The notes under the pieces were generated by a model. It did not search any database. It was not told the DNA's origin and was given only the letters and a program-made list of their open reading frames with translations. From Escherichia coli (GTDB taxonomy: Bacteria; Pseudomonadota; Gammaproteobacteria; Enterobacterales; Enterobacteriaceae), in NCBI RefSeq assembly GCF_016026235.1, contig NZ_CP065613.1: a DNA stretch of 64,000 bases. One strand, 5' to 3'. A program made the translations under genes and the position numbers. This document shows positions 829-64,000 of this stretch, piece after piece; the stretch's first letter is position 1, and each line of letters starts with the position of its first letter.

Positions 829-899
829 GATTTTGCCAGTCCGTTAAGTTGCATACCAAATGCCACTATTCTAGTTATTCTTAACTGGCTGATATTGAT

Positions 900-3644: not shown

Positions 3645-3726
3645 GGTCGGTGCACTTAAGGTGAAAAAGGTTGAGTCGCAAAGCGGAATGCATCTAGCAT
3701 AAAGCCTTATTATTGATGAGGCTATC

Positions 3727-4755: not shown

Positions 4756-5420
4756 CCTTCACCATGTTGCGTCACCAGTAAATCCGCGCTGAGTTTATGA
4801 CGTAAACGACGAATTAACACATCGACGGTGCGCAGGTCAGGGTTTTCCACCCGACGCGCAGAAAGCATACGTAGCAGACGTTCACGGCTGAGAATTTCGC
4901 CCGGATTCGTCACAAATGCCACCAACATTTCATACTCTGCGCGGGTCAGTTTAATCGGCTCGCCATCCCGCTCCAGCGTATGGCGCGACACATTCAGGCA
5001 ATAACCGGCAAAGCGATAGCAGTTGTCCTGAGTGTGCGGTTGAGCTTGTCGCGCGAGGTCGATTCGCCAGAGCAGATTTTTCACCCGTACTACCAGTTCG
5101 CGCAGTTCCAGCGGTTTGGTGACGTAATCGTCTGCGCCCATTTCCAGCCCAACAATACGGTCAATCCGATCGCTGCGTCCGGTAACCAGAATAATCCCCA
5201 CCGTTGAGCGTTCTCGCAGGGCGCGGGTTAACATCAGGCCATTTTCATCGGGTAAGTTGATATCCAGCAGAATTAAATCTACCGGCTGATTCTGCATAAT
5301 TTCCCGCAGCCCGGCACCGCTCGCTGTAACGGAAACGGTATACCCCTCCTGAGTGAAGTAAGATTGTAATCGCGCCTGGGTAACCGGCTCATCTTCAACA
5401 ATAACAATGTGATGTGGCAT
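4728..5420 (-). CDS. torR: response regulator TorR (OmpR family)
   Basis: 230-aa ORF with receiver and winged-helix domains; overlaps the torT 3' end as in E. coli. Confidence 0.93.
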   Translation of the reverse strand: MPHHIVIVEDEPVTQARLQSYFTQEGYTVSVTASGAGLREIMQNQPVDLILLDINLPDENGLMLTRALRERSTVGIILVTGRSDRIDRIVGLEMGADDYVTKPLELRELVVRVKNLLWRIDLARQAQPHTQDNCYRFAGYCLNVSRHTLERDGEPIKLTRAEYEMLVAFVTNPGEILSRERLLRMLSARRVENPDLRTVDVLIRRLRHKLSADLLVTQHGEGYFLAADVC

Positions 5421-18994: not shown

Positions 18995-19381
18995 TCACTT
19001 GGCGATATGCGCAATTGTGGCGATTTCCACCAGCGCGTCAGGTTTTACCAGTCCGCACTGAATGCAGAATCGCGCCGGTTTATCACCCGGAAAAAACTCG
19101 GCGTAGATTTCGTTAATCGCGGCGTAATTTTTCCAGTCGGTAATAAAGATGCTGTTGAAGGTCACATCCGCCATCGTGCCACCCGCCGTCTCGATCACCT
19201 TGCGGATAATTTCCAGAACGTGGCGGGTTTGCGCCTTTGGGTCATCGGCAAACAGCACGTTATTATGTTGATCAAAAGCCAGCGTACCGGAGACATACAC
19301 CACGCCATCAGCCAGCGTGCCGGGAACGAAGGGGGCCAGCGGTGCGCTGCTGCCAGCGGGAATAATTACGGATTTTGGCAT
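18995..19381 (-). CDS. rutC: aminoacrylate peracid reductase RutC (RidA/YjgF family)
   Basis: 128-aa ORF. Confidence 0.9.
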
Positions 19382-19392
19382 CGTTAAACTCC

Positions 19393-21233
<1,841 letters not shown>

Positions 21234-21261
21234 ATCCTTTTCAGCCGCGTAATGGCTTGTT

Positions 21262-21277
21262 TGCAAAGCGGATGCCA
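21262..21277 (-). promoter_or_regulatory. sigma-54 (-24/-12) promoter of rutA: TGGCATCCGCTTTGCA on the minus strand
   Basis: GG-N10-GC element read as rc of tgcaaagcggatgcca, about 30 bp upstream of the rutA start; the rut operon is known to be sigma54/NtrC dependent. Confidence 0.7.
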
Positions 21278-21341
21278 GTTTTTAAAAAGTGAATGTTATT
21301 AATGTGTTAACATTGTGTTGTCTAAAATATCTGGTAAAAAG

Positions 21342-21357
21342 TGGACTAAACGGTCAA
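21342..21357. promoter_or_regulatory. candidate RutR operator (TTGACCGTTTAGTCCA-like imperfect palindrome) in the rutA-rutR intergenic region
   Basis: Matches the TTGACCAnnTGGTCAA RutR consensus at 11/14 positions. Confidence 0.35.
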
Positions 21358-21463
21358 AACAGTTGCACATAAAACATGCATCTGTGCGCGATGAGAGTGC
21401 AGAAGGTCGAGGCCGGGCGGGGGTTTTGCTATCCTGTTGCCAATCTACAAGAGGGGAGAGCGC

Positions 21464-22102
21464 ATGACGCAAGGCGCAGTGAAAACAACGGGTAAACGTT
21501 CGCGCGCAGTAAGCGCGAAGAAAAAAGCGATTCTTAGCGCAGCACTGGACACTTTTTCACAATTCGGTTTTCACGGCACAAGGCTGGAGCAGATCGCAGA
21601 GTTGGCGGGTGTTTCAAAAACCAATCTGCTGTATTACTTCCCGTCAAAAGAGGCGCTGTATATTGCCGTGCTGCGGCAGATTCTCGATATCTGGCTGGCA
21701 CCGTTAAAAGCGTTTCGTGAAGATTTCGCCCCGCTGGCGGCGATCAAAGAGTACATCCGTCTGAAGCTGGAAGTCTCACGCGATTATCCGCAGGCTTCGC
21801 GCCTGTTCTGTATGGAGATGCTGGCAGGCGCGCCGCTGTTAATGGATGAACTGACGGGCGATTTGAAGGCATTAATTGATGAGAAATCGGCGCTGATTGC
21901 CGGTTGGGTCAAAAGCGGCAAACTCGCGCCGATTGATCCGCAGCATTTGATTTTTATGATTTGGGCTTCCACTCAACATTACGCCGATTTCGCCCCTCAG
22001 GTGGAGGCGGTGACAGGCGCAACGTTGCGCGATGAGGTATTTTTCAATCAAACGGTTGAAAACGTGCAGCGGATTATTATTGAGGGGATTCGACCACGTT
22101 AA
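21464..22102 (+). CDS. rutR: TetR-family repressor RutR
   Basis: ORF track 21437..22102; MTQGAVKTTGKRSRAVSAKKKAIL start; TetR HTH; 212 aa. Confidence 0.9.
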   Translation: MTQGAVKTTGKRSRAVSAKKKAILSAALDTFSQFGFHGTRLEQIAELAGVSKTNLLYYFPSKEALYIAVLRQILDIWLAPLKAFREDFAPLAAIKEYIRLKLEVSRDYPQASRLFCMEMLAGAPLLMDELTGDLKALIDEKSALIAGWVKSGKLAPIDPQHLIFMIWASTQHYADFAPQVEAVTGATLRDEVFFNQTVENVQRIIIEGIRPR

Positions 22103-28699: not shown

Positions 28700-29530
28700 A
28701 TGTTTGTTCCGTTTCTCATTATGTTGCGCGAAGGACTTGAAGCCGCGCTGATTGTCAGTTTGATTGCCAGCTATCTTAAGCGTACCCAGCGAGGCCGATG
28801 GATTGGTGTGATGTGGATTGGCGTGTTGCTTGCCGCTGCGTTGTGCCTGGGCTTGGGGATCTTCATTAACGAAACCACCGGCGAATTTCCGCAAAAAGAG
28901 CAGGAACTGTTTGAAGGTATCGTGGCGGTGATCGCCGTGGTGATCCTTACCTGGATGGTTTTCTGGATGCGCAAAGTGTCGCGCAACGTCAAAGTACAAC
29001 TGGAGCAGGCAGTCGATAGCGCATTGCAGCGTGGAAATCATCATGGCTGGGCGCTGGTGATGATGGTCTTTTTTGCCGTTGCAAGGGAAGGGCTGGAGTC
29101 GGTCTTTTTCCTGCTGGCGGCATTTCAACAAGATGTCGGGATCTGGCCGCCGCTGGGTGCAATGCTCGGTCTTGCTACTGCCGTGGTGCTAGGCTTCCTG
29201 CTCTACTGGGGCGGTATTCGCCTCAATCTTGGTGCATTTTTTAAATGGACCAGCCTGTTTATTCTCTTCGTCGCCGCAGGGCTGGCGGCTGGTGCCATTC
29301 GCGCATTTCATGAAGCCGGATTGTGGAACCACTTTCAGGAAATCGCCTTCGATATGAGCGCAGTGCTCTCAACTCACTCGCTGTTTGGCACGCTGATGGA
29401 AGGGATTTTTGGCTATCAGGACGCACCGAGCGTCAGCGAAGTCGCCGTCTGGTTTATTTATCTCATCCCGGCGCTGGTGGCATTTGCTCTGCCACCACGC
29501 GCAGGGGCGACAGCGTCTCGCTCCGCGTAA
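28700..29530 (+). CDS. efeU: ferrous iron permease EfeU (FTR1 family), intact 276 aa
   Basis: ORF track 28691..29530; MFVPFLIMLREGLEAALIVS start; two REGLE motifs; no frameshift, unlike the K-12 pseudogene. Confidence 0.85.
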   Translation: MFVPFLIMLREGLEAALIVSLIASYLKRTQRGRWIGVMWIGVLLAAALCLGLGIFINETTGEFPQKEQELFEGIVAVIAVVILTWMVFWMRKVSRNVKVQLEQAVDSALQRGNHHGWALVMMVFFAVAREGLESVFFLLAAFQQDVGIWPPLGAMLGLATAVVLGFLLYWGGIRLNLGAFFKWTSLFILFVAAGLAAGAIRAFHEAGLWNHFQEIAFDMSAVLSTHSLFGTLMEGIFGYQDAPSVSEVAVWFIYLIPALVAFALPPRAGATASRSA

Positions 29531-29587
29531 CAAATACGACGCAAACTCTTGCTTAGTTACAACATACTTTAAAGGGATAGTCTCGTC

Positions 29588-30715
29588 ATGACCATTAACT
29601 TCCGCCGTAACGCATTGCAGTTGAGCGTGGCTGCGCTGTTTTCTTCTGCTTTTATGGCTAACGCCGCTGATGTGCCGCAGGTCAAAGTGACCGTGACGGA
29701 TAAGCAGTGCGAACCGATGACCATTACGGTTAACGCCGGGAAAACACAGTTCATTATTCAGAACCATAGCCAGAAGGCGCTGGAGTGGGAGATCCTCAAA
29801 GGCGTGATGGTGGTGGAAGAGCGGGAAAATATCGCCCCTGGTTTTAGCCAGAAAATGACGGCGAATTTACAGCCTGGCGAATACGATATGACCTGCGGTC
29901 TGCTGACTAACCCGAAAGGGAAGTTGATCGTCAAAGGTGAGGCAACGGCGGATGCGGCGCAAAGTGATGCGCTGTTAAGTCTTGGTGGTGCAATTACTGC
30001 ATATAAAGCGTATGTCATGGCGGAAACCACGCAGCTGGTGACCGACACCAAAGCCTTTACCGACGCGATTAAAGCTGGCGATATCGAAAAAGCGAAAGCA
30101 CTGTATGCGCCGACGCGCCAGCACTATGAGCGCATTGAACCGATTGCTGAACTGTTCTCCGATCTGGATGGCAGCATTGACGCCCGTGAAGATGATTATG
30201 AGCAAAAAGCCGCCGACCCAAAATTCACTGGTTTCCACCGTCTGGAAAAAGCATTGTTTGGCGACAACACCACCAAAGGGATGGATCAGTACGCTGAGCA
30301 GCTTTATACAGATGTGGTCGATTTGCAAAAACGCATCAGTGAACTGGCTTTCCCACCTTCAAAAGTGGTCGGCGGCGCAGCCGGACTGATTGAGGAAGTG
30401 GCAGCCAGCAAAATTAGCGGTGAAGAAGATCGCTACAGCCACACCGATCTGTGGGATTTCCAGGCTAACGTTGAAGGCTCGCAGAAAATTGTCGATTTGC
30501 TGCGTCCACAACTGCAAAAAGCCAACCCGGAACTGCTGGCAAAAGTCGATGCCAACTTTAAAAAGGTCGATACCATTCTGGCGAAATACCGTACTAAAGA
30601 CGGTTTTGAAACCTACGACAAATTGACCGATGCCGACCGGAATGCACTGAAAGGACCGATTACTGCGCTGGCGGAAGATCTGGCGCAACTTCGCGGTGTG
30701 CTGGGACTGGATTAA
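29588..30715 (+). CDS. efeO: periplasmic iron-uptake protein EfeO (cupredoxin-M75)
   Basis: 375-aa ORF with signal peptide. Confidence 0.9.
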
Positions 30716-30720
30716 GCGTT

Positions 30721-31992
30721 ATGCAGTATAAAGATGAAAACGGCGTGAATGAACCGTCACGCCGACGTTTACTGAAAGTGATAGGTGCACTGGCGCTGGC
30801 GGGAAGTTGTCCGGTCGCTCATGCACAAAAAACGCAAAGTGCGCCGGGTACGCTTTCACCGGATGCACGCAATGAGAAACAGCCGTTTTATGGTGAGCAT
30901 CAGGCAGGGATCCTGACGCCACAACAGGCCGCAATGATGCTGGTGGCGTTTGATGTGCTTGCCAGCGATAAAGCCGATCTTGAGCGGTTGTTTCGCTTGT
31001 TGACTCAGCGTTTTGCTTTTCTGACTCAGGGCGGAGCAGCACCAGAAACGCCAAATCCGCGCCTGCCACCACTCGATTCCGGCATTCTTGGCGGCTACAT
31101 TGCGCCCGATAATCTCACCATCACGTTATCGGTGGGTCACTCATTGTTTGATGAGCGCTTTGACCTTGCGCCACAGATGCCAAAAAAGCTGCAGAAGATG
31201 ACGCGTTTCCCCAACGACTCGCTGGATGCGGCGTTATGTCATGGTGATGTGTTGCTACAGATTTGCGCCAACACCCAGGACACGGTGATCCATGCGCTGC
31301 GCGATATCATCAAACACACGCCGGATTTGCTCAGTGTGCGCTGGAAGCGGGAAGGGTTTATTTCCGATCACGCGGCGCGTAGTAAAGGCAAAGAGACGCC
31401 GATTAATTTGCTGGGTTTCAAAGACGGCACTGCCAATCCCGATAGCCAGAATGATAAGTTGATGCAAAAAGTGGTGTGGGTAACGGCAGATCAGCAGGAG
31501 CCTGCGTGGACAATCGGTGGCAGCTATCAGGCAGTACGCTTGATTCAGTTTCGAGTGGAATTTTGGGACAGAACGCCGCTGAAAGAACAGCAGACGATTT
31601 TTGGCCGTGATAAGCAAACCGGTGCGCCGCTGGGAATGCAGCATGAGCATGATGTGCCTGATTACGCCAGCGACCCGGAAGGGAAGGTGATCGCGCTGGA
31701 CAGCCATATCCGGCTGGCGAATCCCCGCACGGCGGAGAGTGAGTCCAGCCTGATGCTGCGTCGTGGCTACAGTTATTCACTGGGCGTCACCAACTCCGGG
31801 CAACTGGATATGGGGCTACTGTTTGTCTGTTACCAACACGATCTGGAAAAAGGCTTCCTGACAGTACAAAAAAGGCTCAATGGCGAAGCGCTGGAGGAAT
31901 ACGTTAAACCTATCGGCGGCGGTTATTTTTTTGCGCTGCCGGGAGTGAAGGACGCGAACGATTATCTCGGAAGCGCGTTATTGCGGGTTTAA
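30721..31992 (+). CDS. efeB: DyP-type haem peroxidase EfeB with Tat signal
   Basis: 423-aa [20 protein letters not shown] twin-arginine signal. Confidence 0.9.
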
Positions 31993-32000
31993 TGTTTTTA

Positions 32001-32150
32001 GACGGATAAGGCGTTCTTGCGCAGATGCCTGATGCGATGCTTGCGCGTCTTCTTATGCCTACAATCGGCGCGGGTTCGGTAGGCGGATAAGGCGTTCACG
32101 CCGCATACGGCGTTCGTGCGCAGATGCCTGATGCGAATCCTGCTGAAAGC
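32001..32150. repeat. REP/BIME-type repeats downstream of efeB
   Basis: Repeated gacggataaggcgtt...gcagatgcctgatgcga units. Confidence 0.6.
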
Positions 32151-32168
32151 ACACAGCTTTTTTCATAT

Positions 32169-32187
32169 CTGTCATCACTCTGTCATC
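32169..32187 (+). promoter_or_regulatory. Pho box (CTGTCATCACTCTGTCATC) of the phoH promoter
   Basis: Two CTGTCAT direct repeats with 11-bp periodicity upstream of phoH. Confidence 0.7.
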
Positions 32188-32335
32188 TTTCCAGTAGAAA
32201 CTAATGTCACTGAAATGGTGTTTTATAGTTAAATATAAGTAAATATATTGTTGCAATAAATGCGAGATCTGTTGTACTTATTAAGTAGCAGCGTAAGTTC
32301 CCGGCAGTGATAGTCAGTCACTATGGAGATCGCGG

Positions 32336-33400
32336 ATGGTAACGTCCTGTACTGGACATGTTTTAGATAATCAACGCGCCACCACTCGCGGAGTTTTCTC
32401 CTCCGGTAGTCATCTCGTCACTTTGCATTTTCAACCTCATCCTTTCTTTTCATGTGTTACCGACGCCGTAAACGGTGCGCGTAGCCGTTTTTCGGCATTT
32501 TATCCAAAAGCAAACTATGGCTTACAAGGAAGCCAACCCTCTGATGTTCGTGCGCATAATCGCGCTGCCAACGGCGCGTGTGATGAATACAAACAACTCA
32601 AGGTGCTCTCCATGGGAAGACAAAAAGCAGTGATCAAAGCTCGTCGCGAGGCAAAACGTGTGCTGAGACGGGATTCGCGCAGCCATAAGCAGCGTGAAGA
32701 AGAATCGGTCACCTCGCTTGTGCAGATGGGCGGCGTAGAAGCCATTGGTATGGCCCGCGACAGTCACGATACTTCGCCCATCCTCGCGCGAAATGAAGCG
32801 CAATTGCACTATCTGAAGGCTATTGAGAGTAAGCAGCTGATATTCGCCACGGGCGAAGCCGGGTGCGGAAAAACCTGGATCAGCGCAGCAAAAGCGGCAG
32901 AGGCCCTGATACATAAGGATGTCGACAGGATTATCGTCACCCGTCCAGTTCTGCAAGCCGATGAAGATCTTGGCTTCTTACCTGGAGATATCGCAGAAAA
33001 GTTTGCTCCCTATTTTCGCCCGGTCTACGACGTGCTGGTCCGGCGCTTAGGGGCTTCCTTTATGCAGTACTGCCTGCGACCGGAAATAGGGAAGGTGGAA
33101 ATCGCGCCGTTCGCCTATATGCGTGGACGTACCTTTGAAAATGCAGTCGTCATTCTTGACGAGGCGCAGAATGTGACTGCCGCGCAAATGAAAATGTTTT
33201 TAACCCGCCTCGGGGAGAACGTGACGGTTATCGTCAACGGTGATATCACGCAATGCGATTTGCCTCGCGGCGTCTGCTCCGGATTAAGTGACGCGCTGGA
33301 ACGTTTCGAAGAAGATGAAATGGTTGGGATCGTCCGGTTCGGAAAAGAGGATTGCGTACGTTCGGCACTTTGCCAACGTACGCTGCATGCATACAGTTAA
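32336..33400 (+). CDS. phoH: phosphate-starvation-inducible ATPase PhoH
   Basis: 354-aa ORF with Walker A GEAGCGKT and PhoH family signature. Confidence 0.9.
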   Translation: MVTSCTGHVLDNQRATTRGVFSSGSHLVTLHFQPHPFFSCVTDAVNGARSRFSAFYPKANYGLQGSQPSDVRAHNRAANGACDEYKQLKVLSMGRQKAVIKARREAKRVLRRDSRSHKQREEESVTSLVQMGGVEAIGMARDSHDTSPILARNEAQLHYLKAIESKQLIFATGEAGCGKTWISAAKAAEALIHKDVDRIIVTRPVLQADEDLGFLPGDIAEKFAPYFRPVYDVLVRRLGASFMQYCLRPEIGKVEIAPFAYMRGRTFENAVVILDEAQNVTAAQMKMFLTRLGENVTVIVNGDITQCDLPRGVCSGLSDALERFEEDEMVGIVRFGKEDCVRSALCQRTLHAYS

Positions 33401-33449
33401 GTGTATTATCGGTGCAGAGCCCGGGCGAACCGGGCTTTGTTTTGGGTGT

Positions 33450-33863
33450 TTATGCCCGGACTAGCGCTTTTTCTGAAACAACCATTTTTATTTGCCCCTG
33501 GCTGGTGAAGTGTACGCTCATCCTGTGGCTTTTTTGTAGTTGCTGATAGAGCTCATCAGGTATTGCTAAGCTCTCTGCATATTCTTGCGGCGTATATTGG
33601 TAGGCTGCATGATGCTGCTGTTTTTGAAAACGCAGCTTATTGTACAGCGCCCAGACAATTAACACGACGGCATTCGCCACTGCCAGCAAAAAATAGAACT
33701 GAAGTCGGCTTCTGGCCTCGCTTTGCCAGTAATAACCCGTCAGCAGATCCATGGCGAATAAGAATATGAACAAAGCAAATAATGTCCACAAGATGGTTGT
33801 GGCAACATAATCAACCAGTAAACGTACTGGTGATTGTCGGGTCGTAATAATTAAATTGTTCAT
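33450..33863 (-). CDS. pgaD: PGA synthesis protein PgaD
   Basis: 137-aa membrane ORF overlapping the pgaC stop. Confidence 0.9.
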
Positions 33864-33864
33864 A

Positions 33865-35190
33865 TTAACCTCTCAGAATCCCGCGATCAGGACTTACCCA
33901 ACGGGCGCGTTGCTTTTTAGGCATCAACATGACTCGTGTAAATGATACCAATGTCGTTGCCAGGCTCAGCATCCAGAAAATAACCGGGAACCAAATAATC
34001 CAGAAAAGCGATGAAGTCAGATTATGCTCATAGCGATTCTCGATCATCAGGCTGACAATAAATTGCAGTAAACATAACGTACACAATAATATTCCGGCAG
34101 TATGTGTCGCAGCGATATGTGTCAATTCAATATTTAACGGTACACCGGCAAGTTGGACTGCGTAAATAATGAAACCGACCAGGCAGGTGAAGGCCCATAT
34201 TGTCGTCAGGCAGTATTCAAAAAACAGCGGCCACATTCGAAAGTTTTCTTTGCGCCACAACCTTGTCATATTTTTGAGGAATACTTCTGCACCGCCCTGA
34301 GCCCAGCGCAGGCGCTGTTTCCACAGCCCTTTTAACGTTTCAGGCATTAATATCCAGCACAGCGCCCGTGGCTCGTAAAAAATCGTCCACTGATTCAACT
34401 GCAGCTTCCAGCTAATATCAATATCTTCGGTGATCATATCGTCACTCCAGTAACCCACTTCTGCCAGGGCGCTGCGACGAAATGCGGCAATAACACCGGA
34501 AACGGTAAATACGTTTCCATAGATACGCTGGGTTCGCTTGATCAAACCAATAATTGAGGAATACTCGCCAACCTGAATTTTACCCACCAGGGTAGAACGT
34601 GTTCGAATACGAGGATTACCGGTTACGGCACCCACACGCGGGTTGTACAACATCGGTTCCACAATATATGCCGCCGCATCGCGGTCTAATAACGCATCGC
34701 CATCAATGCACACCAGATATTCACTTTTCGCCGCGGCAGCTCCGGTTTTAAGCGCAATGGCTTTCCCCTGGTTTTGCGCCAGATGAATGACCCGCAAATG
34801 GGGAATTTGTGCAGCCATGCGATCCAGGATGGCACGGGTTTTATCTGTTGAACCGTCATTTACGGCAATAACTTCAATGTTCTCATAACGCTGTGCTAAA
34901 GCGGCGTGTATGGTTTCCTCAACGTTTTTCTCCTCATTAAAACAGGGAATGATAATGGAGATAGACGGATTATCTTTCAACTGGGGAGCTGGTGCGTTTT
35001 CTCCCCACGGCCAGTGGCGTTCACGATAGACCCAGAAATAGACGCCGCCAACAATCCACATAATGGACATAAAAAACGGCCAGAAGAAAACGAACCTCAT
35101 CATCAGTTCACCAGAGTGAAAGTACGCTACGCATAGGGGTATGCATAACACCAGACATAATATAAAAAACGATACGATGCGATTAATCAT
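33865..35190 (-). CDS. pgaC: poly-beta-1,6-N-acetylglucosamine synthase PgaC (GT2)
   Basis: 441-aa ORF; GT2 motifs [14 protein letters not shown]. Confidence 0.92.
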
Positions 35191-56938: not shown

Positions 56939-57424
56939 ATATTTGTTCCCTAAATACACTATGAGAACATACCTGTTAATTACAGGACAATATCAGGTGA
57001 ATGACCATGCAATTTAATAGTAGATTTCCAAGTATCTAAGCAGTTTTACACAGATTCTATGCAGTATCTTACAATCCCCTACACCACCTCTAAATAACAT
57101 AACTTATTGAAATATATAGAGAATCTGTAAAGCCTCTTTTCAGGGAACTATGCAGGGTGTTAGTCGTCCCTCTCCAGACACTACATATAGTGCTATATAC
57201 AGGGCCATATAACGATATATAGATGCTTGGTCACGTGGTGTAACTATCAAGAAACTTAACGATTTCCTGCGTGAAAGTTAGAAGTGATGGCTATAGTTAC
57301 CCTCCTGAATCTTCATAGTTGATTCGGTTAGTTGGGCTTGTTATGAAGATGCTTCATCCGAATCATCTACCAACCCCTAATCAACCTCATGCGCTCTATT
57401 AACCAGTCTCATAAGGAAGTCCTT

Positions 57425-57453
57425 TTGAGACACTTTCAACGTAACGGTAGAAT
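57425..57453 (+). promoter_or_regulatory. sigma-70 promoter for the recombinase (TTGAGA -17 bp- TAGAAT), embedded in repeated TTTTGAGAC motifs
   Basis: -35 at 57425-57430 and -10 at 57448-57453. The 11-bp inverted repeat ccttttgagac/gtctcaaaagg (57421-57431 / 57467-57477) brackets it; further TGAGAC copies at ~57491 and ~57505. Confidence 0.55.
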
Positions 57454-57526
57454 GCACCCTCAAGTAGTCTCAAAAGGTTGTTTTTGGATTATGAGACTAA
57501 CTTTTGAGACTTCTAAGGGGAACATT

Positions 57527-58078
57527 ATGGCGATACTTGGATATTGCAGGGTGAGTACAGATGACCAATCCATCACTAACCAGCAAATGCAAATTGAAGA
57601 GGCAGGGTACAACATTGCTAAATGGTTCACTGATGAAGCTGTCAGTGGTTCTGTCAAAGCTTCTTTAAGAAACGGTTTCAGTAGTTTGTTAGCTTATGCA
57701 CGAGAAGGTGACACCGTAGTTGTGGTAGCTGTAGACCGTCTTGGACGTGACACAATTGATGTGTTATCAACGGTTAAAGCGCTACAGGCTAAAGGTGTGA
57801 CAGTTATCAGCCTTAGAGAAGGGTTTGACTTATCAAGCGCTATGGGTGAAGCAATGTTAGGCATTATGTCAACGTTGGCACAGCTTGAAAGAAGCTTGAT
57901 AGCAGAGCGTAGAAAGGCTGGTATTGAACGTGCTAAAGCTGAAGGGGTACATATGGGAAGACCTGTAAAAGCTTCTTCAGAGGCTGTACAGATGCTTATT
58001 TCACAAGGTAAAACGAGGTTGCAGATTCAGGAAGAGCTAGGAATCTCTAGAGCAACTTATTACAGACTTGCTAAATAA
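57527..58078 (+). CDS. small serine recombinase of the Hin/Gin/Pin invertase-resolvase family (184 aa)
   Basis: MAILGYCRVSTDDQ catalytic-serine motif, VVAVDRLGRDTIDVL, C-terminal HTH GISRATYYRLAK; RBS taagggg 7 nt upstream. ORF track 57389..58078. Confidence 0.88.
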   Translation: MAILGYCRVSTDDQSITNQQMQIEEAGYNIAKWFTDEAVSGSVKASLRNGFSSLLAYAREGDTVVVVAVDRLGRDTIDVLSTVKALQAKGVTVISLREGFDLSSAMGEAMLGIMSTLAQLERSLIAERRKAGIERAKAEGVHMGRPVKASSEAVQMLISQGKTRLQIQEELGISRATYYRLAK

Positions 58079-58422
58079 GTTATTAAACAGTTACATGGAT
58101 GTGACTGATATTTGGCTTTTTTGCAAAGGGGGTGCTATATCGAGAATGTACCGTACCAAGCAGCTACAGACATCTGTTAGATATTTTCGAAGATTTTTAG
58201 AAGGGGAATTTGAAGAGGGGCTACTACGATTTTATAAAAATTTTCAGATTCTGAAAAGTTACTGTACAGAATACATACAGACATCTTTAAAGTATCTATA
58301 AAGACTTTTAAGATAAAAGATAGATATCCCAGAAAGGATATCCGTTTAGAAAGCCTGTTAAGTATCTCTTAAAAGAGAGTAAACCTTGTCAATAGTGATT
58401 GCAATAAAAATTTTTATTTCTT

Positions 58423-59085
58423 ATGTCAATTGAGCATATTTTAATCGGGAAACATCATGGGGGTTCTGATTACTGGAGAACTCCATTTCTTATATTCCGC
58501 AATTTGCACCGTGAATTTATTTTCAGTCTGGATGGTGCTGCAACTGAGCATGACACGCTGTTACCACGATTCACCGATGATATTCACAATCAGTCATGGG
58601 ATGGTGAAAGGGTCTTCGTTAACCCACCATACAGCGACACTAAAACATTCCTCGTAAAAGCGTCTGAAGCAGATTTAGCGGTATTCCTGATACCGTACCG
58701 ACCCCAAACCATATACTGGCTTAAGCACATCTTCACAAACCCGCTTTGCCATGAAATCCGTATTCTTCATCGTGCAGTTAAATACCTTCCACCAGCAGGG
58801 CATAACAGGCTTACTATTAGGTCACCGTTTCCAAGTGCAGTCGTTGTTTTTAAAAAAGAACCACGTAAGCATGAAATTACACAGATGATTTGCTGTGGTG
58901 ACACATTGCTACCGTTAACCATCATTAACCGTGGTGGACTAAGAGGAAGACCCACCATTTACCCACCTGAGACGCTCGACAGCTTCATAAAACTATACAG
59001 GCAAGGCAAACCCATTAAGTGCATTGCAGATGCTCTCAGAATGCCCCTGAGCACGTCATACAGGATTGCTCAAAGGTTGAGCTAA
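58423..59085 (+). CDS. phage Dam-type N6-adenine DNA methyltransferase (NPPY motif) with C-terminal resolvase-like HTH extension
   Basis: GGSDYWRTPF...FSLDGAATEHDT...ERVFVNPPYSD resembles the phage N-6-adenine-methyltransferase family. The last ~60 aa (PIKCIADALRMPLSTSYRIAQRLS) resemble a resolvase-type HTH. Confidence 0.7.
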   Translation: MSIEHILIGKHHGGSDYWRTPFLIFRNLHREFIFSLDGAATEHDTLLPRFTDDIHNQSWDGERVFVNPPYSDTKTFLVKASEADLAVFLIPYRPQTIYWLKHIFTNPLCHEIRILHRAVKYLPPAGHNRLTIRSPFPSAVVVFKKEPRKHEITQMICCGDTLLPLTIINRGGLRGRPTIYPPETLDSFIKLYRQGKPIKCIADALRMPLSTSYRIAQRLS

Positions 59086-59465
59086 AATTCTCATAAATAT
59101 GGTCATTTACAAGACAGGTGTTTTAGATATTAAGAAGTATCCCTGTGAACAATAAATGACCAATCAGTAATTATTCTGTGAAATAATTGTTGCAATTTAT
59201 AATCACATCTGTTATAGTTTCTATGGGCTGATAAAAGAACTCAGAACATTAAGAGGTTACAACGTTGGGAGGCGTCAGAGTATTGACGGATTTTCACAGC
59301 CTCTTATTCATTCAAGGCTTTTCCTTTTGCTGTTAATGCTCGCGTAATCGCTCAGGCTTCTGAGTTCCTTTATCAGTCCATCTTCTAATTAATTCACTCC
59401 CTCTGGGGTTGGTCACTATACGTGGTCAGCCCTTTCTTTGTTTTATTTTTAAAAAGGAAAACGTA

Positions 59466-60401
59466 ATGGAAAAATTTCACATGTTTGATGACCGTATTTA
59501 TCAGATGACTAATGGCGTTAAAGCTGCCGACCGTATTATTTACACTGTCATGTTGAATGAACAAAAGTTTTATCACGATAAGGGGCAATATTATACCCCT
59601 TCATATGCTCATCTTGGTCAGTATGCTGGAATCACAAGAACATCCGTGATTGCATGTATGAAACGACTTGAGGCACATGGTTTAATCAAGAAAACTAACG
59701 TTGCAAGCAATCAGTGTGTTATTAAAGTTTATTCACTTGATGAAGTACCGGAAGTTTTAACAGAGCTTACAGCTAAGGAAGCCAGAAAGGCAAAGCTGGA
59801 GTCTAAAGTTACTCAGTCAGTCAAGAAAGATGACCCACTGAGTCAAAATTCTTTACCCACTGAGTCAAAATTTTTTACTCAGTCAGTCAAAATCTTTGAC
59901 ACGTATAATAACAGTAATAACAAGAAAGAACTTATTAATAACAATAAAGAAGATGACTTTGAAGAAGAATCTCTTAAGAAGGGAGCTTCGCTCTGTGATT
60001 CACATGAATGTGATTCTCTTGGTATTGAAGAGGCTATTAAACAATCTGACTTGGATGACCTTGATAAAGAGGCTATTAAACAAGATGAAGTAAACTCTGA
60101 TGTGAATGAAGTTAGTGACCAGCAAGATACACCTTGCCGCCTCGAATCAACTGATGATGAATTACCGGATGTTGACCTTGATGATGAAGAAGACCCTGAA
60201 GAGGAATTGAAACGTGAACAGCGTAAAGCAGAAATTAAAGAAAGATTCAGAAAGGCGAAGCTAAAGAGCAGGATTGATGAACTTGATGACTTTGATGATA
60301 GTGACGATGATTTTACTTTTACACCAAAAAAGAAAACTCACACCGAGCCAAAGAAAGAAAAAGTTAAAGTCAGACGTGTTTATGGTGGAGGAATGTTTTA
60401 A
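59466..60401 (+). CDS. lambda-O-like replication initiator (winged-helix N-domain) with long acidic low-complexity C-terminus
   Basis: YTPSYAHLGQYAGITRTSVIACMKRLEAHGLIKK DNA-binding motif typical of phage replication-protein O N-domains; iterons inside the gene; RBS aaggaaa before ATG 59466. ORF track 59409..60401. Confidence 0.6.
   Translation: MEKFHMFDDRIYQMTNGVKAADRIIYTVMLNEQKFYHDKGQYYTPSYAHLGQYAGITRTSVIACMKRLEAHGLIKKTNVASNQCVIKVYSLDEVPEVLTELTAKEARKAKLESKVTQSVKKDDPLSQNSLPTESKFFTQSVKIFDTYNNSNNKKELINNNKEDDFEEESLKKGASLCDSHECDSLGIEEAIKQSDLDDLDKEAIKQDEVNSDVNEVSDQQDTPCRLESTDDELPDVDLDDEEDPEEELKREQRKAEIKERFRKAKLKSRIDELDDFDDSDDDFTFTPKKKTHTEPKKEKVKVRRVYGGGMF
59811..59893 (+). repeat. candidate origin: four iterons (ACTCAGTCAGTCAAG, ACCCACTGAGTCAAAATT x2, ACTCAGTCAGTCAAAAT) followed by an AT-rich stretch, inside the rep gene
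   Basis: Direct/inverted repeats read at 59811-59825, 59833-59850, 59855-59872 and 59877-59893, then acgtataataacagtaataacaag; architecture like lambda ori within gene O. Confidence 0.6.
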
Positions 60402-60691
60402 TGAAAACTTATAATGGCGAGAGAAAATACCGTGACTATTTACTCAGACGTTACAGCATTTCTCGTGAAGGTTACTTGATGAAAGATACTCACGGGGAAG
60501 TTTACCGGATTCGACCGAAGAAAGAAGGGAGGGATTATTATTTCGTCGATGGTGTGACAGATTTAAAGATTGACGCTTTGAGGTTTGCAGTGATGTATCA
60601 TTTTGATATCTGGGATTCAGTCCACCAGCTACGATTAAAAGACGGTGACCCCAATAACTTAAAGGCCACCAATATTATCACAAAACGTTAG
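60401..60691 (+). CDS. HNH_3/NUMOD4-like small protein (96 aa), translationally coupled to the rep gene (ATGA overlap)
   Basis: YSISREGYLMKDTHGEVYRIRPKKEGRDYYFVDGV...VHQLRLKDGDPNNLKATNI fits the Y-x-VS-x-G-x-V...H-x-DG-x-x-NN-x-x-NL pattern of phage HNH homing-endonuclease-like proteins. Confidence 0.45.
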   Translation: MKTYNGERKYRDYLLRRYSISREGYLMKDTHGEVYRIRPKKEGRDYYFVDGVTDLKIDALRFAVMYHFDIWDSVHQLRLKDGDPNNLKATNIITKR

Positions 60692-60873
60692 TTTGTTTTA
60701 CCATCATCAATCGTAATTGTGATTTCATATTTGAAAAGCTTAATGCTGAAATTGAATCGTGTACTTTTGGCGATAATCATTTTTAAAAGCTGATACACCA
60801 GAAGCACCAGAAACACAAAGCAACCTAAGCTTGCGAATCTGTGAGATTCAGCAATTGTTTCAAGAAAGCCCAT
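60688..60873 (-). CDS. 61-aa single-pass membrane protein on the opposite strand, with strong RBS
   Basis: MGFLETIAESHRFASLGCFVFLVLLVYQLLKMIIAK...; rc shows TAAGGGGAATTAATG (SD 5 nt before ATG); driven by a near-consensus minus-strand promoter. Confidence 0.55.
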   Translation of the reverse strand: MGFLETIAESHRFASLGCFVFLVLLVYQLLKMIIAKSTRFNFSIKLFKYEITITIDDGKTN

Positions 60874-60924
60874 TAATTCCCCTTATTTATCAAAGGGAAT
60901 GACCTGTATCAGCCCCCTATAAAC

Positions 60925-60975
60925 ATAATATCATGTAAATGAGATGTTGACAATATGTTAAATAAATGTTAAGAT
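60925..60975. promoter_or_regulatory. face-to-face divergent promoters sharing the TTGACAA core
   Basis: Minus strand: TTGTCA -17- TATTAT (60948-60953 / 60925-60930). Plus strand: TTGACA -17- TAAGAT (60947-60952 / 60970-60975). Geometry resembles a phage immunity/anti-immunity switch. Confidence 0.5.
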
Positions 60976-61011
60976 TGTAGTATGAGCAAGAGATTTAAGG
61001 AGATTTTTGCA

Positions 61012-61302
61012 ATGACTCACACAGTTACGCGCCTTTTGCCAGAGGCATTTGAACGACTGGCAGCAATCAAAGCCAAATACCCTGATATGAAGCACACAGC
61101 GCTTGTTGGAGAGCTTTTAAAAGAGTCGGTAGCCCTGACCCCTTTCGATAACGTTAAGGGCGTTGCAGAGGGTTCTAAGGCCATCAGAATCACAACAGGC
61201 CAACTGGAACTACTCAAAGCACAGTCCGCAGTAGCAGGTTGCTCAATGATTCAGGTGTTAAGCGCGAAGGTTCATCAACTGGCGGATAGATTGGAGGTTT
61301 GA
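61012..61302 (+). CDS. hypothetical protein (96 aa from ATG 61012 with AAGGAG SD; alternative leaderless start at 60982 gives 106 aa)
   Basis: MTHTVTRLLPEAFERLAAIKAKYPDMKHTALVGELLKE...; no recognisable domain. Confidence 0.5.
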   Translation: MTHTVTRLLPEAFERLAAIKAKYPDMKHTALVGELLKESVALTPFDNVKGVAEGSKAIRITTGQLELLKAQSAVAGCSMIQVLSAKVHQLADRLEV

Positions 61303-61727
61303 TGCTATGTACATTTGATTATCATGCGTTTTATCGCCATAGAGGTCATCTTGTCCGTGAGAATAACGGAACATGGAAAGATTTAACTCGTAATGCTGAA
61401 CCCTTCACACACCAGCAATTAAAATCCCGCTTCTCCAGATGGAAGAATGCACCAGCAGATACTGGTGATTTTGAGATTACCCATACATTTGATTACGCAT
61501 CAGAAGATGACCTTCGCAATGCAATTAAGCTGATTGAAGACTTCAATACCTCAGAAGATGTGGATGGTGACAAATATAAATCCCGTGGTAACCGCTATAA
61601 CCGTGATGATATCACTCAGGCCATAAATGCTGGTCAATCTCAGCGATACATCACAGAAAAATATGGTATTTCACGGAGACAGTATTTCTACGTTAAATCA
61701 TTGATTAATAAGGACAATTCAAAATAA
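61299..61727 (+). CDS. hypothetical protein with C-terminal resolvase-type HTH (142 aa)
   Basis: C-terminus DDITQAINAGQSQRYITEKYGISRRQYFYVKSL resembles invertase/resolvase HTH; ATGA-coupled to the upstream ORF. Confidence 0.5.
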   Translation: MMLCTFDYHAFYRHRGHLVRENNGTWKDLTRNAEPFTHQQLKSRFSRWKNAPADTGDFEITHTFDYASEDDLRNAIKLIEDFNTSEDVDGDKYKSRGNRYNRDDITQAINAGQSQRYITEKYGISRRQYFYVKSLINKDNSK

Positions 61728-61735
61728 CCATCTAA

Positions 61736-61752
61736 GTAACGGTAGAATGCAC
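61736..61752 (+). repeat. 17-bp motif GTAACGGTAGAATGCAC, second copy in direct orientation (first copy at 57441-57457 in the recombinase promoter)
   Basis: Exact 17/17 match read at both positions, 4.3 kb apart. Confidence 0.7.
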
Positions 61753-61888
61753 TTTACAGGCAGAGTTGCACCTTAATTTGATAAATTACCTTACCAGCCA
61801 GTGCAACTCCCTCTGTAACCCGCATGGTTACTGGCCTCAGAATGGCTATTTTAAGAGGTCTGAGATGTGTTTTATAGGAAATTTAAAA

Positions 61889-62212
61889 ATGAGCAATTAC
61901 GAATTACAGATTTTTGTTGATAACGACACCGTGACCATGCTTCAACACTTCACTGATGTAGGTATCGCAATTAATTTTGATAAATTACTAAAGCTGATGG
62001 CTGATAATGCAGAAAACATCTCTGACTTTATTCAGTCGGTGGAGTTTAACGAGCCCCGAATGATGCTACCAATTACAGACAGCAGTATGAAGCGTCTTAT
62101 TATTGAGGAAACTAACCGATACAGCGTTAGCCCTGAAAAATATCTCAAGGCGGCTGTAACAATTTTGTACGCTGACAGTATTCTGGTGACGGATTCTGTG
62201 AGGGTTCACTAA
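61889..62212 (+). CDS. hypothetical protein (107 aa from ATG 61889; ORF track 61766..62212 begins at an upstream TTG)
   Basis: MSNYELQIFVDNDTVTMLQHFTDVGIAINFDKLLKLMADNAENI...; no recognisable domain. Confidence 0.4.
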   Translation: MSNYELQIFVDNDTVTMLQHFTDVGIAINFDKLLKLMADNAENISDFIQSVEFNEPRMMLPITDSSMKRLIIEETNRYSVSPEKYLKAAVTILYADSILVTDSVRVH

Positions 62213-62313
62213 TGGGTTTAATAATTGCTTGGACGTTGCTTGGCTTATTTGTTGGTTGCTGGGTGGGTAATACGGTAAATAAAAATTGATATTACCAATC
62301 TGTTAAAAAGCTG

Positions 62314-62342
62314 TTGACAAATAACCTTAAGCATGGCATAAT
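62314..62342 (+). promoter_or_regulatory. near-consensus sigma-70 promoter TTGACA -17 bp- CATAAT
   Basis: -35 at 62314-62319, -10 at 62337-62342; no ORF for the next 335 nt. Confidence 0.6.
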
Positions 62343-62677
62343 TTTAATTATGGGAGAGCAATTCTCTCTTATTTCTTTCAACAATTCCATCTACGTCTAG
62401 GGATAGTTATTCTGAAAGGTGCAATGCTTTTCGTCATGGCTTATTTAGCCCGCACTAAATAGGCCATATCAAAAATCTTTGTTCATTCATTGAATCCTTT
62501 AGATGTTTTTAATTTCTTCACCTTATGAATAGCCCTTTATAAGAAATTATCTAGGGCTATTCAGTTTTTAAAAAGCATACTTGGCAAACGCTTTTAAGTC
62601 TCTTCTAAGTTTTTTGTATGGCTGTCAAGTATGCTTTTTAAAAACTGAAATACTTTAGCTTAGAAGAGGAAAAAACA
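62343..62677 (+). ncRNA. candidate structured leader/ncRNA with a 24-bp perfect inverted repeat (62560-62583 / 62626-62649, 42-nt loop) and a second 8-bp IR (atagccct...agggctat, ~62527-62560)
   Basis: ttcagtttttaaaaagcatacttg ... caagtatgctttttaaaaactgaa read directly; region lacks any ORF; ends 28 nt before the strong SD agaggaaaaaacaATG of the next gene. Confidence 0.45.
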
Positions 62678-63388
62678 ATGACAAACGATTTATATTTTAA
62701 CGGTCGAAAGATTGATAGCTTCGGTGACTGGTCACCACAGACTGAACATCCGCTACATATTATTCAGCGTCAAGAGCATGACAAGCGTATTGAGCTTGAG
62801 CAAGAAATCCGAAGGTCACCAAAGGTAATTTCCTTTGTGTCCCCTGAGCCTCAAGAGATGCCTGATGTATGCAAAACTGAATCATTATTTAATCTTGAGC
62901 GTGAATATTACCCACTGCTAAAAGCACAGCGTATTAAACTAGATGATGCTTACGATGCTGTTAAGAACTTCGAAGAAACCTCGAAACCTTCAGAATATGA
63001 TATTGCTTACGAGATTAAGTCAAACCCGTTTATCTATTATGAAGGAAACTTTAATGATGGTTTTGGTACAGCGATTGAAGACGTTCCTAAAGTTCTTCAA
63101 AGTATCCCTGAAGGGTTCCGGTTAATTGATGTCAGACAAGCATTAAGGGGTTCTGGTCAATTTATTCTGATGACTGGTAAAACAGATGAAGAGATTCTTC
63201 AGTTAGCTGAAGCTAATTTGACTAAGCATTATTCCGGTAAACTGGATAAGTTAAAGCAAAAGCTTAAAAAAGAACTTGATAGCATGAAAGAACTTGTTAG
63301 TGAATATGAATCACAGAAGAAGATTGCTATGCAGGCTGATATTGAGCAGCTTACGAAGATTTCTCAGAAATATAGCAAAGCACTTTAA
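62678..63388 (+). CDS. hypothetical protein (236 aa) with C-terminal coiled-coil
   Basis: MTNDLYFNGRKIDSFGDWSPQ...; strong RBS AGAGGA; K/E-rich heptad-like C-terminus; no recognisable domain. Confidence 0.6.
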   Translation: MTNDLYFNGRKIDSFGDWSPQTEHPLHIIQRQEHDKRIELEQEIRRSPKVISFVSPEPQEMPDVCKTESLFNLEREYYPLLKAQRIKLDDAYDAVKNFEETSKPSEYDIAYEIKSNPFIYYEGNFNDGFGTAIEDVPKVLQSIPEGFRLIDVRQALRGSGQFILMTGKTDEEILQLAEANLTKHYSGKLDKLKQKLKKELDSMKELVSEYESQKKIAMQADIEQLTKISQKYSKAL

Positions 63389-63402
63389 TTATGAGGTGGT
63401 GA

Positions 63403-63609
63403 ATGATTGATTTAACAGAACGCTATGAGCTTATTAAAGCAATTAGCGAACGATTGAAAGAACAACCCAACAAACCAAAACGAATCAAATCATCCACCTC
63501 CTCTAAGCAAAATAACAGAATCAGAAGAATCGCTAAATGGTGTCTTGATAAATTACCAAGTGATTGTCAGATTGTCGGTGAAGATGGTAATTATTATCTG
63601 GTTAGGTAA
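63403..63609 (+). CDS. hypothetical basic small protein (68 aa)
   Basis: MIDLTERYELIKAISERLKEQPNKPKRIKSS...; RBS gaggtggtga before the ATG. Confidence 0.45.
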   Translation: MIDLTERYELIKAISERLKEQPNKPKRIKSSTSSKQNNRIRRIAKWCLDKLPSDCQIVGEDGNYYLVR

Positions 63610-63633
63610 AAATTGGTTGGGTAGAAAATCTAC

Positions 63634-63676
63634 GGGAGAGATTATCGATATTATTCGGTAGTTTCTCCCTTTTTTG
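63634..63676 (+). terminator. possible rho-independent terminator (gggaga...tctccc + T6)
   Basis: 6-bp stem with long loop followed by tttttt. Confidence 0.35.
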
Positions 63677-63775
63677 TATGTGCACTACGTGAAATCTGTA
63701 AAGCTAATATCTACACTGAAAAATAGAATTTACGTACAACACGCTTAAACAAAGGTATGAGGTGAAAAAATATGA

Positions 63776-64000
63776 ATGAGCAAATTCACAGTTGATAGTT
63801 TTATCGTTGAACTGGGCTTCAATGAGAACGTTATTAAAGGTCTGCAAAAAGTTGAAAAGGCAGCTTTGCAGTCAGCACAAAAAATTGAACGGAATTTGAA
63901 TAGAGCGTTTAAGGTCGATACCAAGCAACTTGACAGCAATTTAACGGCTTCTTTAAAGTCAATGGAGGGGAAGATTAATAAAACTTTTGACCGTCTGGAA
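63776..64000 (+). CDS. 5' part of an ORF running off the window end
   Basis: MSKFTVDSFIVELGFNENVIKGLQKVEKAALQSAQKIERNLNRAF...; RBS gaggtg upstream; no stop before the window end. Confidence 0.45.
   Translation, partial: MSKFTVDSFIVELGFNENVIKGLQKVEKAALQSAQKIERNLNRAFKVDTKQLDSNLTASLKSMEGKINKTFDRLE

Follow-up and report, generated by a model that had tools for sequence, protein, structure and literature searches.

An integrative island within mdtG of Escherichia coli, a putative satellite of Felix-O1-type phages

Near the right end of a 64,000-nucleotide stretch of the Escherichia coli contig NZ_CP065613.1 (RefSeq assembly GCF_016026235.1), the gene mdtG breaks off and is replaced by DNA of a different composition. 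This stretch, referred to below as the window, raises the question of what kind of element has entered the gene. The original prediction, made from the letters of the window, was that of an uncharacterized prophage-like element, of the sort in which new anti-phage or addiction systems are usually found. Position 56940 is the start of an integrative island of 11.35 kb (12.6 kb with an insertion sequence, IS), of which the window contains the left 7 kb. Sequence comparisons lead us to favor, on balance, the view that this island is a satellite of virulent Felix-O1-type myophages (Ounavirinae) resembling the PLEs (elements akin to phage-inducible chromosomal islands) of Vibrio cholerae.

Boundaries, integrase, and distribution of the island

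The alignment with mdtG of E. coli K-12 breaks off exactly at position 56939, 178 nt into the coding sequence. The breakpoint falls within the interval originally proposed (56937 to 56940); the codon is ~60 instead of ~56. The 3' part of mdtG, from codon ~60 to the stop codon, occupies positions 55891 to 56939 on the minus strand, its 5' 178 nt lying across the island. Up to the junction, the right end of the window is chromosome of the E. coli type, with opgH/mdoH, yceK, msyB, and mdtG on the minus strand. The GC content falls from 0.51 (positions 1 to 56939) to 0.38 (positions 56940 to 64000), in agreement with the predicted replacement of mdtG by low-GC DNA.

The far end of the island was read from contig L022 (GCA_014155105.1), which was reached via the 68-amino-acid (aa) protein of the island. 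This contig is 99.94% identical to positions 53403 to 64000 of the window and runs on beyond the window end. In L022, the island spans 12,602 bp, equivalent to window positions 56940 to 69541, or 11,349 bp without the IS. The 68-aa gene is followed on its 3' side by a gene for a tape measure protein (TMP), a gene for a 257-aa "Dit-like" protein, and a gene for a large serine recombinase (LSR). The attR junction reads GTGTTTAGGAACCCATTATA, CTGA, and AGACAATACC in succession and is followed by the missing 5' piece of mdtG and then by lpxL. The second boundary is therefore located beyond the window, as had been anticipated, and mdtG is indeed split by an integrated, phage-related mobile element. 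The LSR is intact, comprises 509 residues, is encoded on the minus strand, and matches PF00239, PF07508, and PF13408. An integrase had seemed to be missing because the window stops before the far end of the island; the part within the window contains, as had been noted, neither a tyrosine integrase nor a tRNA. For enzymes of the LSR class, a target site within a gene is nothing unusual.

Comparison of the junctions of the window with those of L022 and two other contigs (L001 and L002) defined a 4-bp crossover core, CTGA, which is common to attB, attL, and attR and occupies positions 56936 to 56939 at attL. The adjacent segment (positions 56940 to 56970) is an integrase-specific attP arm. It forms an imperfect inverted repeat with the attR arm (TATTTGTTCCCTAAATACAC versus GTGTTTAGGAACCCATTATA) and varies among islands that carry different LSRs, common sequence being found from position ~56971 on. 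Island-side arms that are imperfect inverted repeats are as expected for the attP site of an LSR. Attachment sites, reported as absent in the original prediction, could thus be defined, and the far-end LSR is the enzyme that, judging from these sites, inserted the island into mdtG at the CTGA core. The same mdtG junction was found in several independent assemblies, which rules out an intact mdtG split by a chimeric assembly.

The term prophage does not fit this element. The complete element has a conserved layout of 13 genes, the number also found in an intact relative, L003 (strain MRE162, CP119404; island between yciI and tonB), and the full gene inventories of L003 and L022 include no gene for capsid or head, portal, terminase, sheath, tube, or lysis proteins. 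The sole structural genes in these inventories encode the TMP and a tube initiator, which is the "Dit-like" protein. A megablast search of 50,697 phage records gave no match to the island, which accordingly matches no annotated phage family and was rightly called uncharacterized.

Related islands were detected in 558 of 5,426 complete E. coli genomes, all in the chromosome, and no island >95% identical to the present copy was found in these 558 genomes. The islands occupy at least four sites (mdtG; yciI-tonB; yecE, encoding a DUF72 protein; and the vicinity of wrbA/yccJ), with one LSR type per site and ~33% identity between types. The order of the core is constant, namely, the genes for the 107-aa, 236-aa, and 68-aa proteins, the TMP, the tube initiator, and the LSR. 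The left modules are mosaic, with an orientation of the small recombinase gene that flips and a replication initiator (Rep) that varies in type. Every named source belongs to the Enterobacteriaceae (E. coli, Shigella, Salmonella, Escherichia albertii, Citrobacter, and Pluralibacter). The 236-aa protein forms 3,087 clusters at 90% identity and 17 at 50%, and the 107-aa protein forms ~3,000 clusters at 90%. Such microdiversity is compatible with fast diversification in a limited range of hosts.

This distribution bears on whether the island could be the decayed remnant of a once-complete prophage, the surviving genes having no coordinated function. Low GC content, phage-type replication and tail genes, and the presence of IS in several copies are what such a remnant would display. 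However, the same 11- to 12-kb order with intact open reading frames (ORFs) recurs in ~10% of E. coli, at four sites or more and with different integrases, and Salmonella, Shigella, E. albertii, and Citrobacter carry it as well. A single architecture is not what random decay would arrive at repeatedly, and the noncoding elements of the island are conserved with compensatory changes. We therefore regard decay as very improbable.

Tail-core genes and regulatory DNA in common with Felix-O1-type phages

The link to a particular phage group starts with the two structural genes. The first 75 codons of the TMP gene are present at positions 63776 to 64000 (plus strand), where the gene runs off the window, and display 72% nucleotide identity to the start of the TMP gene of phage pinkbiff. 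The TMPs of related islands match PF20155 and phrog_4036, and the island TMP matches gp017 of PDB entry 9ndy (5e-67). The tube initiator matches the "tube initiator protein gp018" of the same entry (2e-122). It is 74 to 78% identical to the product of the phage gene located directly 3' of the TMP gene, a gene with counterparts in ~250 genomes of Felixounavirus and related Ounavirinae, and the identity reaches 80.6% over 556 nt at the DNA level. The initiators of different islands are 70 to 87% identical to each other.

The TMPs are more divergent. Overall identity between the island and phage TMPs is 26 to 33%, the island proteins are 682 to 723 residues long versus 736 to 742 for those of the phages, and the island TMPs are mosaic, with two N-terminal and three C-terminal types. 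Nonetheless, the ~25 N-terminal residues (xFxVDxFIVELGF...GLQRVEK) are nearly identical to those of the phages in every island variant, and every variant retains the LLSSSYPEEE-type C-terminal end. The baseplate hub complex of phage Bas63 (JohannRWettstein) has four listed components, namely, gp20 (hub), gp21 (PA protein), gp18 (tube initiator), and the C terminus of the TMP, and the last 25 residues of the latter touch the PA protein and the hub (PMC12609058). The island proteins are homologous to gp17 and gp18 of Bas63, their genes are in the same order, and the TMPs have the same end motifs, the C-terminal motif falling in the stretch that touches the hub and the PA protein in Bas63. In contrast to the phage genes, which abut, the island TMP and initiator genes are each preceded by a promoter-like cassette of their own.

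Noncoding DNA provides a further link. Positions 58229 to 58362 contain DNA in common with intergenic regulatory regions of Felix-O1-type phages. An 82-nt segment (positions 58281 to 58362), located within the 345 nt of spacer that precede the methylase-Rep operon of the island, matches the divergent region between genes 43 and 44 of pinkbiff (87% over 63 nt), and positions 58229 to 58262 match a second intergenic region of this phage (88% over 34 nt). The 82-nt segment matched 253 phage records (E value, 1e-10), all of those among the matches listed being Felix-O1-type genomes of 86 to 90 kb, and its counterpart in phage Moogle is also intergenic. The segment is conserved in all islands checked and carries a palindrome, GATATCC-N6-GGATATC, which is longer by one complementary base pair in the island than in the phage.

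The GC content of the island (0.39) is that of the phages (0.39) and not that of the host (0.51). The phage link would thus rest on four independent sequence signals: the tube initiator, the TMP, the noncoding segment, and the GC content. These signals also bear on the identity of the helper, since the island could be a satellite of an unsampled helper, such as a temperate myophage whose tail module resembles that of Felix O1, in which case the likeness to Ounavirinae would reflect a common ancestry of the tail genes and not a helper relationship. The best phage initiators, at ~75 to 78% identity, compare with 70 to 87% among the islands themselves, the TMPs are divergent overall, and most known satellites of E. 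coli (P4, phage-inducible chromosomal islands [PICIs], and capsid-forming PICIs [cfPICIs]) use temperate helpers, all of which would be compatible with a helper of another kind. The top phage matches among those listed for the 50,697 records searched are, however, all Felix-O1-type genomes, the noncoding segment is specific to this group, the GC contents are equal, and searches of E. coli genomes gave no closer homolog outside the islands. A helper from outside the group is in our estimation improbable.

The TMP gene is a frequent target of IS. In L022, it is split after codon 266 by an IS3-family (IS911-like) element (positions 11172 to ~12421; window equivalent, ~64574) with a 3-bp duplication, and another contig, which matches the window at 100% identity, ends at the same IS edge. 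Removal of the IS restores an uninterrupted ORF of 682 codons, indicating that the insertion is recent. Since the TMP gene is split in this lineage, the present copy of the island is probably impaired. ISEc12 (IS21 family) is inserted in the TMP gene of L001 (positions 29143 to 31445) and L004 (positions 19330 to 21632), and in L002 (positions 31673 to 33975) it strikes the LSR gene instead of the TMP gene. The repeated strikes could result from a target preference or from selection against the expression of the TMP and LSR genes.

The pattern of conservation in the TMP is also what a decoy would require, with conserved termini and initiator and a highly diverged, mosaic middle. The island might accordingly be a mobile defense island in which a variant TMP and initiator with phage docking termini poison the assembly of Felix-O1-type tails in a dominant negative manner, the island spreading vertically or by generalized transduction. 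No recognizable packaging function was found in the island, and the extreme microdiversity of the core proteins suggests an arms race. Interference with tail assembly is established for the Tai systems, encoded by PICIs and prophages (PMC11364771), which are likewise carried by mobile elements and aimed at phage tails but differ from the island in that the latter encodes homologs of the tail parts themselves. On the other side, a full set of integrase, Rep-origin, and resolvase, typical of elements that excise and replicate, is kept at several sites, and known satellites also interfere with their helpers, so that interference does not exclude transfer. PADLOC recognized only the methylase of the island, as an "orphan MTase," which led us to reject a cargo of known defense genes. 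The defense or addiction cargo of the original prediction thus gave way to the satellite reading, which is favored by the tail-core genes and regulatory DNA held in common with virulent Felix-O1-type phages. We consider a purely defensive island unlikely, and the two roles, satellite and nontransducing interference island, are not mutually exclusive.

Recombination, replication, and late modules

The noncoding left end of the island (positions 56971 to 57526, plus strand) is kept across islands with different integrases, the whole 550 nt being conserved whatever the LSR type. It contains the promoter of the small recombinase gene (positions 57425 to 57453, plus strand; promoter scan) and, at positions 57405 to 57511, inverted pairs of GTCTCAWAAGG/CCTTTTGAGAC (five or more copies), which are candidate res or operator sites. 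The gene itself (positions 57527 to 58078, plus strand) encodes a serine recombinase of the resolvase/invertase family, as predicted (183 aa; PF00239, 6e-42; helix-turn-helix [HTH] domain HTH_7; phrog_125 "DNA invertase," 2.5e-57). The predicted assignment to the Hin/Gin type was too narrow, because a PDB sequence search placed the protein at least as close to the γδ/Tn3 resolvase (6e-31) as to Gin (8e-22). The cluster of repeated motifs on the immediate upstream side of the gene resembles res sites and, together with the inverted copies and the conservation of the left end, suggests a res-like or autoregulatory arrangement. The search for an invertible segment flanked by inverted crossover sites gave no convincing pair, a 21-nt inverted repeat (positions 57380 and 63899) being at chance level. 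An identical recombinase was found in islands located at other chromosomal sites. The enzyme is probably, on the basis of these sequence features, a resolvase-type accessory protein rather than an integrase.

The next gene (positions 58423 to 59085, plus strand) encodes a 220-aa Dam-family N6-adenine methylase with a C-terminal resolvase-type HTH (PF05869, 7e-14; HTH_7, 3e-4; phrog_111), a fusion that the original prediction had recognized. Between this gene and the Rep gene lie a 38-nt inverted repeat (positions 59223 to 59381; arms 79% complementary and separated by 83 nt) and a hairpin resembling a terminator (positions 59405 to 59433). The Rep gene follows (positions 59466 to 60401, plus strand; 311 aa), its product matching replication initiation and O-like PHROG families (1e-8 to 1e-11) and, weakly, DnaD_N. 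The predicted intragenic iterons were recovered as approximately four 22-bp repeats at positions 59809 to 59897, a candidate origin. The island thus appears to possess an initiator and an origin of its own, as expected for a phage satellite.

Two small ORFs lie downstream from Rep. The first (positions 60401 to 60691, plus strand; 96 aa) contains no domain and is probably the "HNH-like" protein of the original prediction; this designation could not be retained, since no ORF matched an HNH model even at an E value of ≤10, and the search with this ORF returned nothing at this threshold except DUF7271 (0.035). The second (positions 60688 to 60873, minus strand; annotated in related islands) encodes 61 residues with one hydrophobic segment. 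Back-to-back σ70-like promoters at positions 60925 to 60975 (10 of 12 matches per strand) separate this minus-strand ORF from the next operon and form a candidate regulatory switch, as had been proposed together with the small membrane protein. Seven ORFs of the window gave no match to Pfam, PHROG, NCBIfam, or PADLOC, in accordance with the five or more domain-less ORFs expected.

The next operon starts with ORFs of 96 codons (positions 61012 to 61302, plus strand; called in identical contigs), with no domain, and 141 codons (positions 61302 to 61727, plus strand), with a weak C-terminal HTH signal (HTH_28; E value, 0.11). A 17-nt motif, GTAACGGTAGAATGCAC, is present at positions 61736 to 61752 (plus strand), with a second exact copy at positions 57441 to 57457 in the promoter of the small recombinase gene, and is also exact in L003. 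The copies overlap the −10 regions of two promoters 4.3 kb apart, those of the small recombinase gene and of the 107-aa gene, suggesting that these genes are coregulated. The 107-aa gene (positions 61889 to 62212, plus strand) is conserved in all family members. Its product gave a poor AlphaFold2 model (pLDDT, 53), too poor for a structure search, and its twice-repeated β-α-α pattern offers a hint, which we do not claim as an assignment, of a tandem ribbon-helix-helix fold.

A strong promoter (positions 62314 to 62342, plus strand; near-consensus, 11 of 12 positions) precedes the structured 5' leader of the 236-aa gene (positions 62314 to 62649 including the promoter, plus strand; hairpins at positions 62526 to 62649). 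The leader comprises a terminator-like hairpin (GCCCT..AGGGC-TTTT) followed by a hairpin of at least 20 bp (positions 62560 to 62649). The latter has an invariant loop, TCTTCTAAGT. Comparison of two sequence types shows compensatory changes at 10 of its pairs, and it contains many G-U pairs that are valid only in plus-strand RNA. The leader matched no Rfam family, and the Rfam scan of the island gave nothing above threshold; it may be an attenuator or an antitermination target. The motif TCTTCTAAGT, which is enriched in the phage, was considered as a further phage link and dropped because most phage copies are in coding sequences.

The 236-aa hallmark protein (positions 62678 to 63388, plus strand) matched nothing in Pfam, PHROG, NCBIfam, PADLOC, or a tblastn search of phages. 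Its AlphaFold2 model (pLDDT, 77) consists of a long helical hairpin and a small α/β domain, with generic coiled-coil matches only. The "transposase" label attached to this protein in RefSeq/NCBI in hundreds of genomes was rejected, being backed by neither a transposase family match nor a transposase fold, and looks like a propagated misannotation; the island differs in this respect from transposons and IS. A Mu-like transposable phage, to which the "transposase" and "tape measure" labels and the Gin-like recombinase could have pointed, was likewise discarded in view of the missing transposase fold, the defined att sites, and the size of 11 kb.

The 68-aa core ORF (positions 63403 to 63609, plus strand; no domain) is conserved in position in all family members. 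It is separated from the TMP gene by a strong intrinsic terminator (positions 63634 to 63669, plus strand; 15-bp stem and T run; conserved across the family) and by a promoter-like cassette, CTACGTGAAAT...TTTACGTA..CACGCTTAA (positions 63682 to 63748, plus strand), which precedes the TMP and/or tube initiator genes throughout the family. Positions 63685 to 63747 are 97% identical to the spacer between the TMP and initiator genes of L003 (positions 20997 to 21059), and the ~65-nt cassette (CTACGTGAAAT ... TTT(C)ACGTAG/C..CACGCTTAA) is found upstream of both genes in L014 to L018 as well. It is probably an activator-dependent promoter. Neither the cassette nor GTAACGGTAGAATGCAC was found in the Felix-O1-type phage genome examined. 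Taken together, the covarying leader, the terminator, and the repeated cassette suggest a tightly controlled late module.

Two observations concern DNA outside the islands. In some genomes, an unrelated phage remnant (L021, positions 1 to 2882; L032, positions 1 to 4789) adjoins the integration site at yciI and carries a Mu gp48-like gene, tail fiber genes, and an invertase gene with HTH_7. In the window, the opgH-yceK spacer (positions 55065 to 55190) matches two Rfam entries, ES036/CssrF at 47.9 bits, which exceeds the gathering score, and naRNA4, which falls short of it. Both are familiar annotations of REP-type small RNAs and have no relation to the island.

A proposed satellite cycle and its implications

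An integrase and a Rep-origin, only two virion homologs, a compact order kept at several sites, and ties to a single phage group are the properties of a satellite, and the following cycle can be proposed, in which silencing, excision with Rep firing, and altered morphogenesis have partial backing from the sequence and the other steps are inferred. The island would be kept silent by terminators and by promoters that bear repeated operator-like motifs. A Felix-O1-type phage, on infecting the cell, would turn on the methylase-Rep operon via the phage-shared promoter/operator segment. The LSR would then excise the island, with a directionality factor that could be encoded by the phage, as in PLEs, and Rep would fire at its internal iterons. 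The island DNA would be packaged into helper capsids. One helper headful of 88.8 kb corresponds by calculation to ~7.8 copies of the island, and this ratio, together with the resolvase, suggests packaging of concatemers, which the small recombinase and the adjacent repeats would cut to monomers in the recipient. Finally, the late module (107-aa, 236-aa, and 68-aa proteins, TMP, and tube initiator) would alter the morphogenesis of the helper, the TMP and tube initiator of the island joining the helper baseplate hub via the conserved contact surfaces.

Several observations weigh against this reading. An exact 26-nt attP probe detected no excised or circular form in metagenome or viral contig collections, and every small-recombinase context retrieved was that of an integrated copy. 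The island yielded no identifiable packaging signal, small terminase, or protein that sets capsid size. Homologs of helper tail genes would suit a role in pure interference equally well, and the frequent IS disruption of tail genes in this lineage and in L001 and L004 fits dispensability or cost as well as it does a function. The best promoter-like reading of the phage-shared segment runs leftward, away from the Rep operon, and the 236-aa and 107-aa core proteins give no interpretable match.

Among known systems, the PLE, which also has an LSR and a virulent myophage as its helper, appears to be the closest functional analogue. Both are compact LSR-integrated chromosomal islands with their own initiator and iterons, without capsid or terminase genes, and with mostly orphan genes. 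Both are apparently specialized on a virulent myophage, a dependence deduced from sequence in the case of the island. There is no detectable sequence homology between them, as tested indirectly via general families; the island proteins that match annotated families are limited to the recombinases, methylase, Rep, TMP, and initiator. PLEs reside in V. cholerae and exploit ICP1, whereas the island resides in enterobacteria and has Ounavirinae as its candidate helpers. The island also differs by its TMP and tube initiator homologs, its small resolvase-type recombinase, and its Dam-HTH methylase, none of which is, to our knowledge, a feature of PLEs.

PICIs and cfPICIs, such as EcCICFT073 and EcCIEDL933, resemble the island in size (~11 kb), site-specific insertion into the chromosome, and a layout of integrase, regulatory switch, replication, and morphogenesis-related modules. 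Unlike PICIs, the island has a serine and not a tyrosine integrase, both of its recombinases being serine enzymes, and no ORF matching Phage_integrase or AlpA. It gives no Pfam or PHROG match to terS, rpp, ppi, cpm, or capsid, portal, and protease genes. Its structural genes belong to the tail core and not to the head, and its candidate helper is virulent. P4-like elements and PICMIs (minimalist chromosomal islands that are phage inducible) are small helper-dependent islands, as the present one would be, and PICMIs use virulent helpers and package concatemers, as proposed here. The island differs from these elements by its integrase class, its tail genes, and the absence of Sid, Psu, Delta, α primase(-helicase), Fis, and AlpA.

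The only satellites of virulent phages characterized in the searched literature are PLEs, PICMIs, and a family from Streptococcus thermophilus. No description of the present island family was found in this literature, which leaves out most subscription journals. We tentatively put forward, as a possibility that falls short of probable, that virulent Felix-O1-type coliphages here have their first satellite family, which would also be the first to replace the tail core of its helper (TMP and tube initiator) where other satellites remodel capsids or redirect packaging, the helper being sensed via copied phage regulatory DNA.

Independently of the helper, the family supplies several new LSRs with defined att sites in E. 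coli. If the satellite reading is correct, the TMP and tube initiator that it encodes, whose termini match those of the phage, would open a new hijacking mechanism to direct tests, and they would help to probe the docking of the tape measure and tube initiator in the baseplate hub. An E. coli satellite would be a much more convenient system, since the structure of its helper (Bas63) is solved. Felix-O1-type phages are standard phages for the typing, biocontrol, and therapy of Salmonella and E. coli. A satellite or interference island that occurs in ~10% of E. coli, as well as in Salmonella, Shigella, and Citrobacter, would represent an unrecognized determinant of their host range and, at about 1 in 10 E. 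coli genomes, could be a major one for both resistance to Ounavirinae and Ounavirinae-mediated gene transfer.

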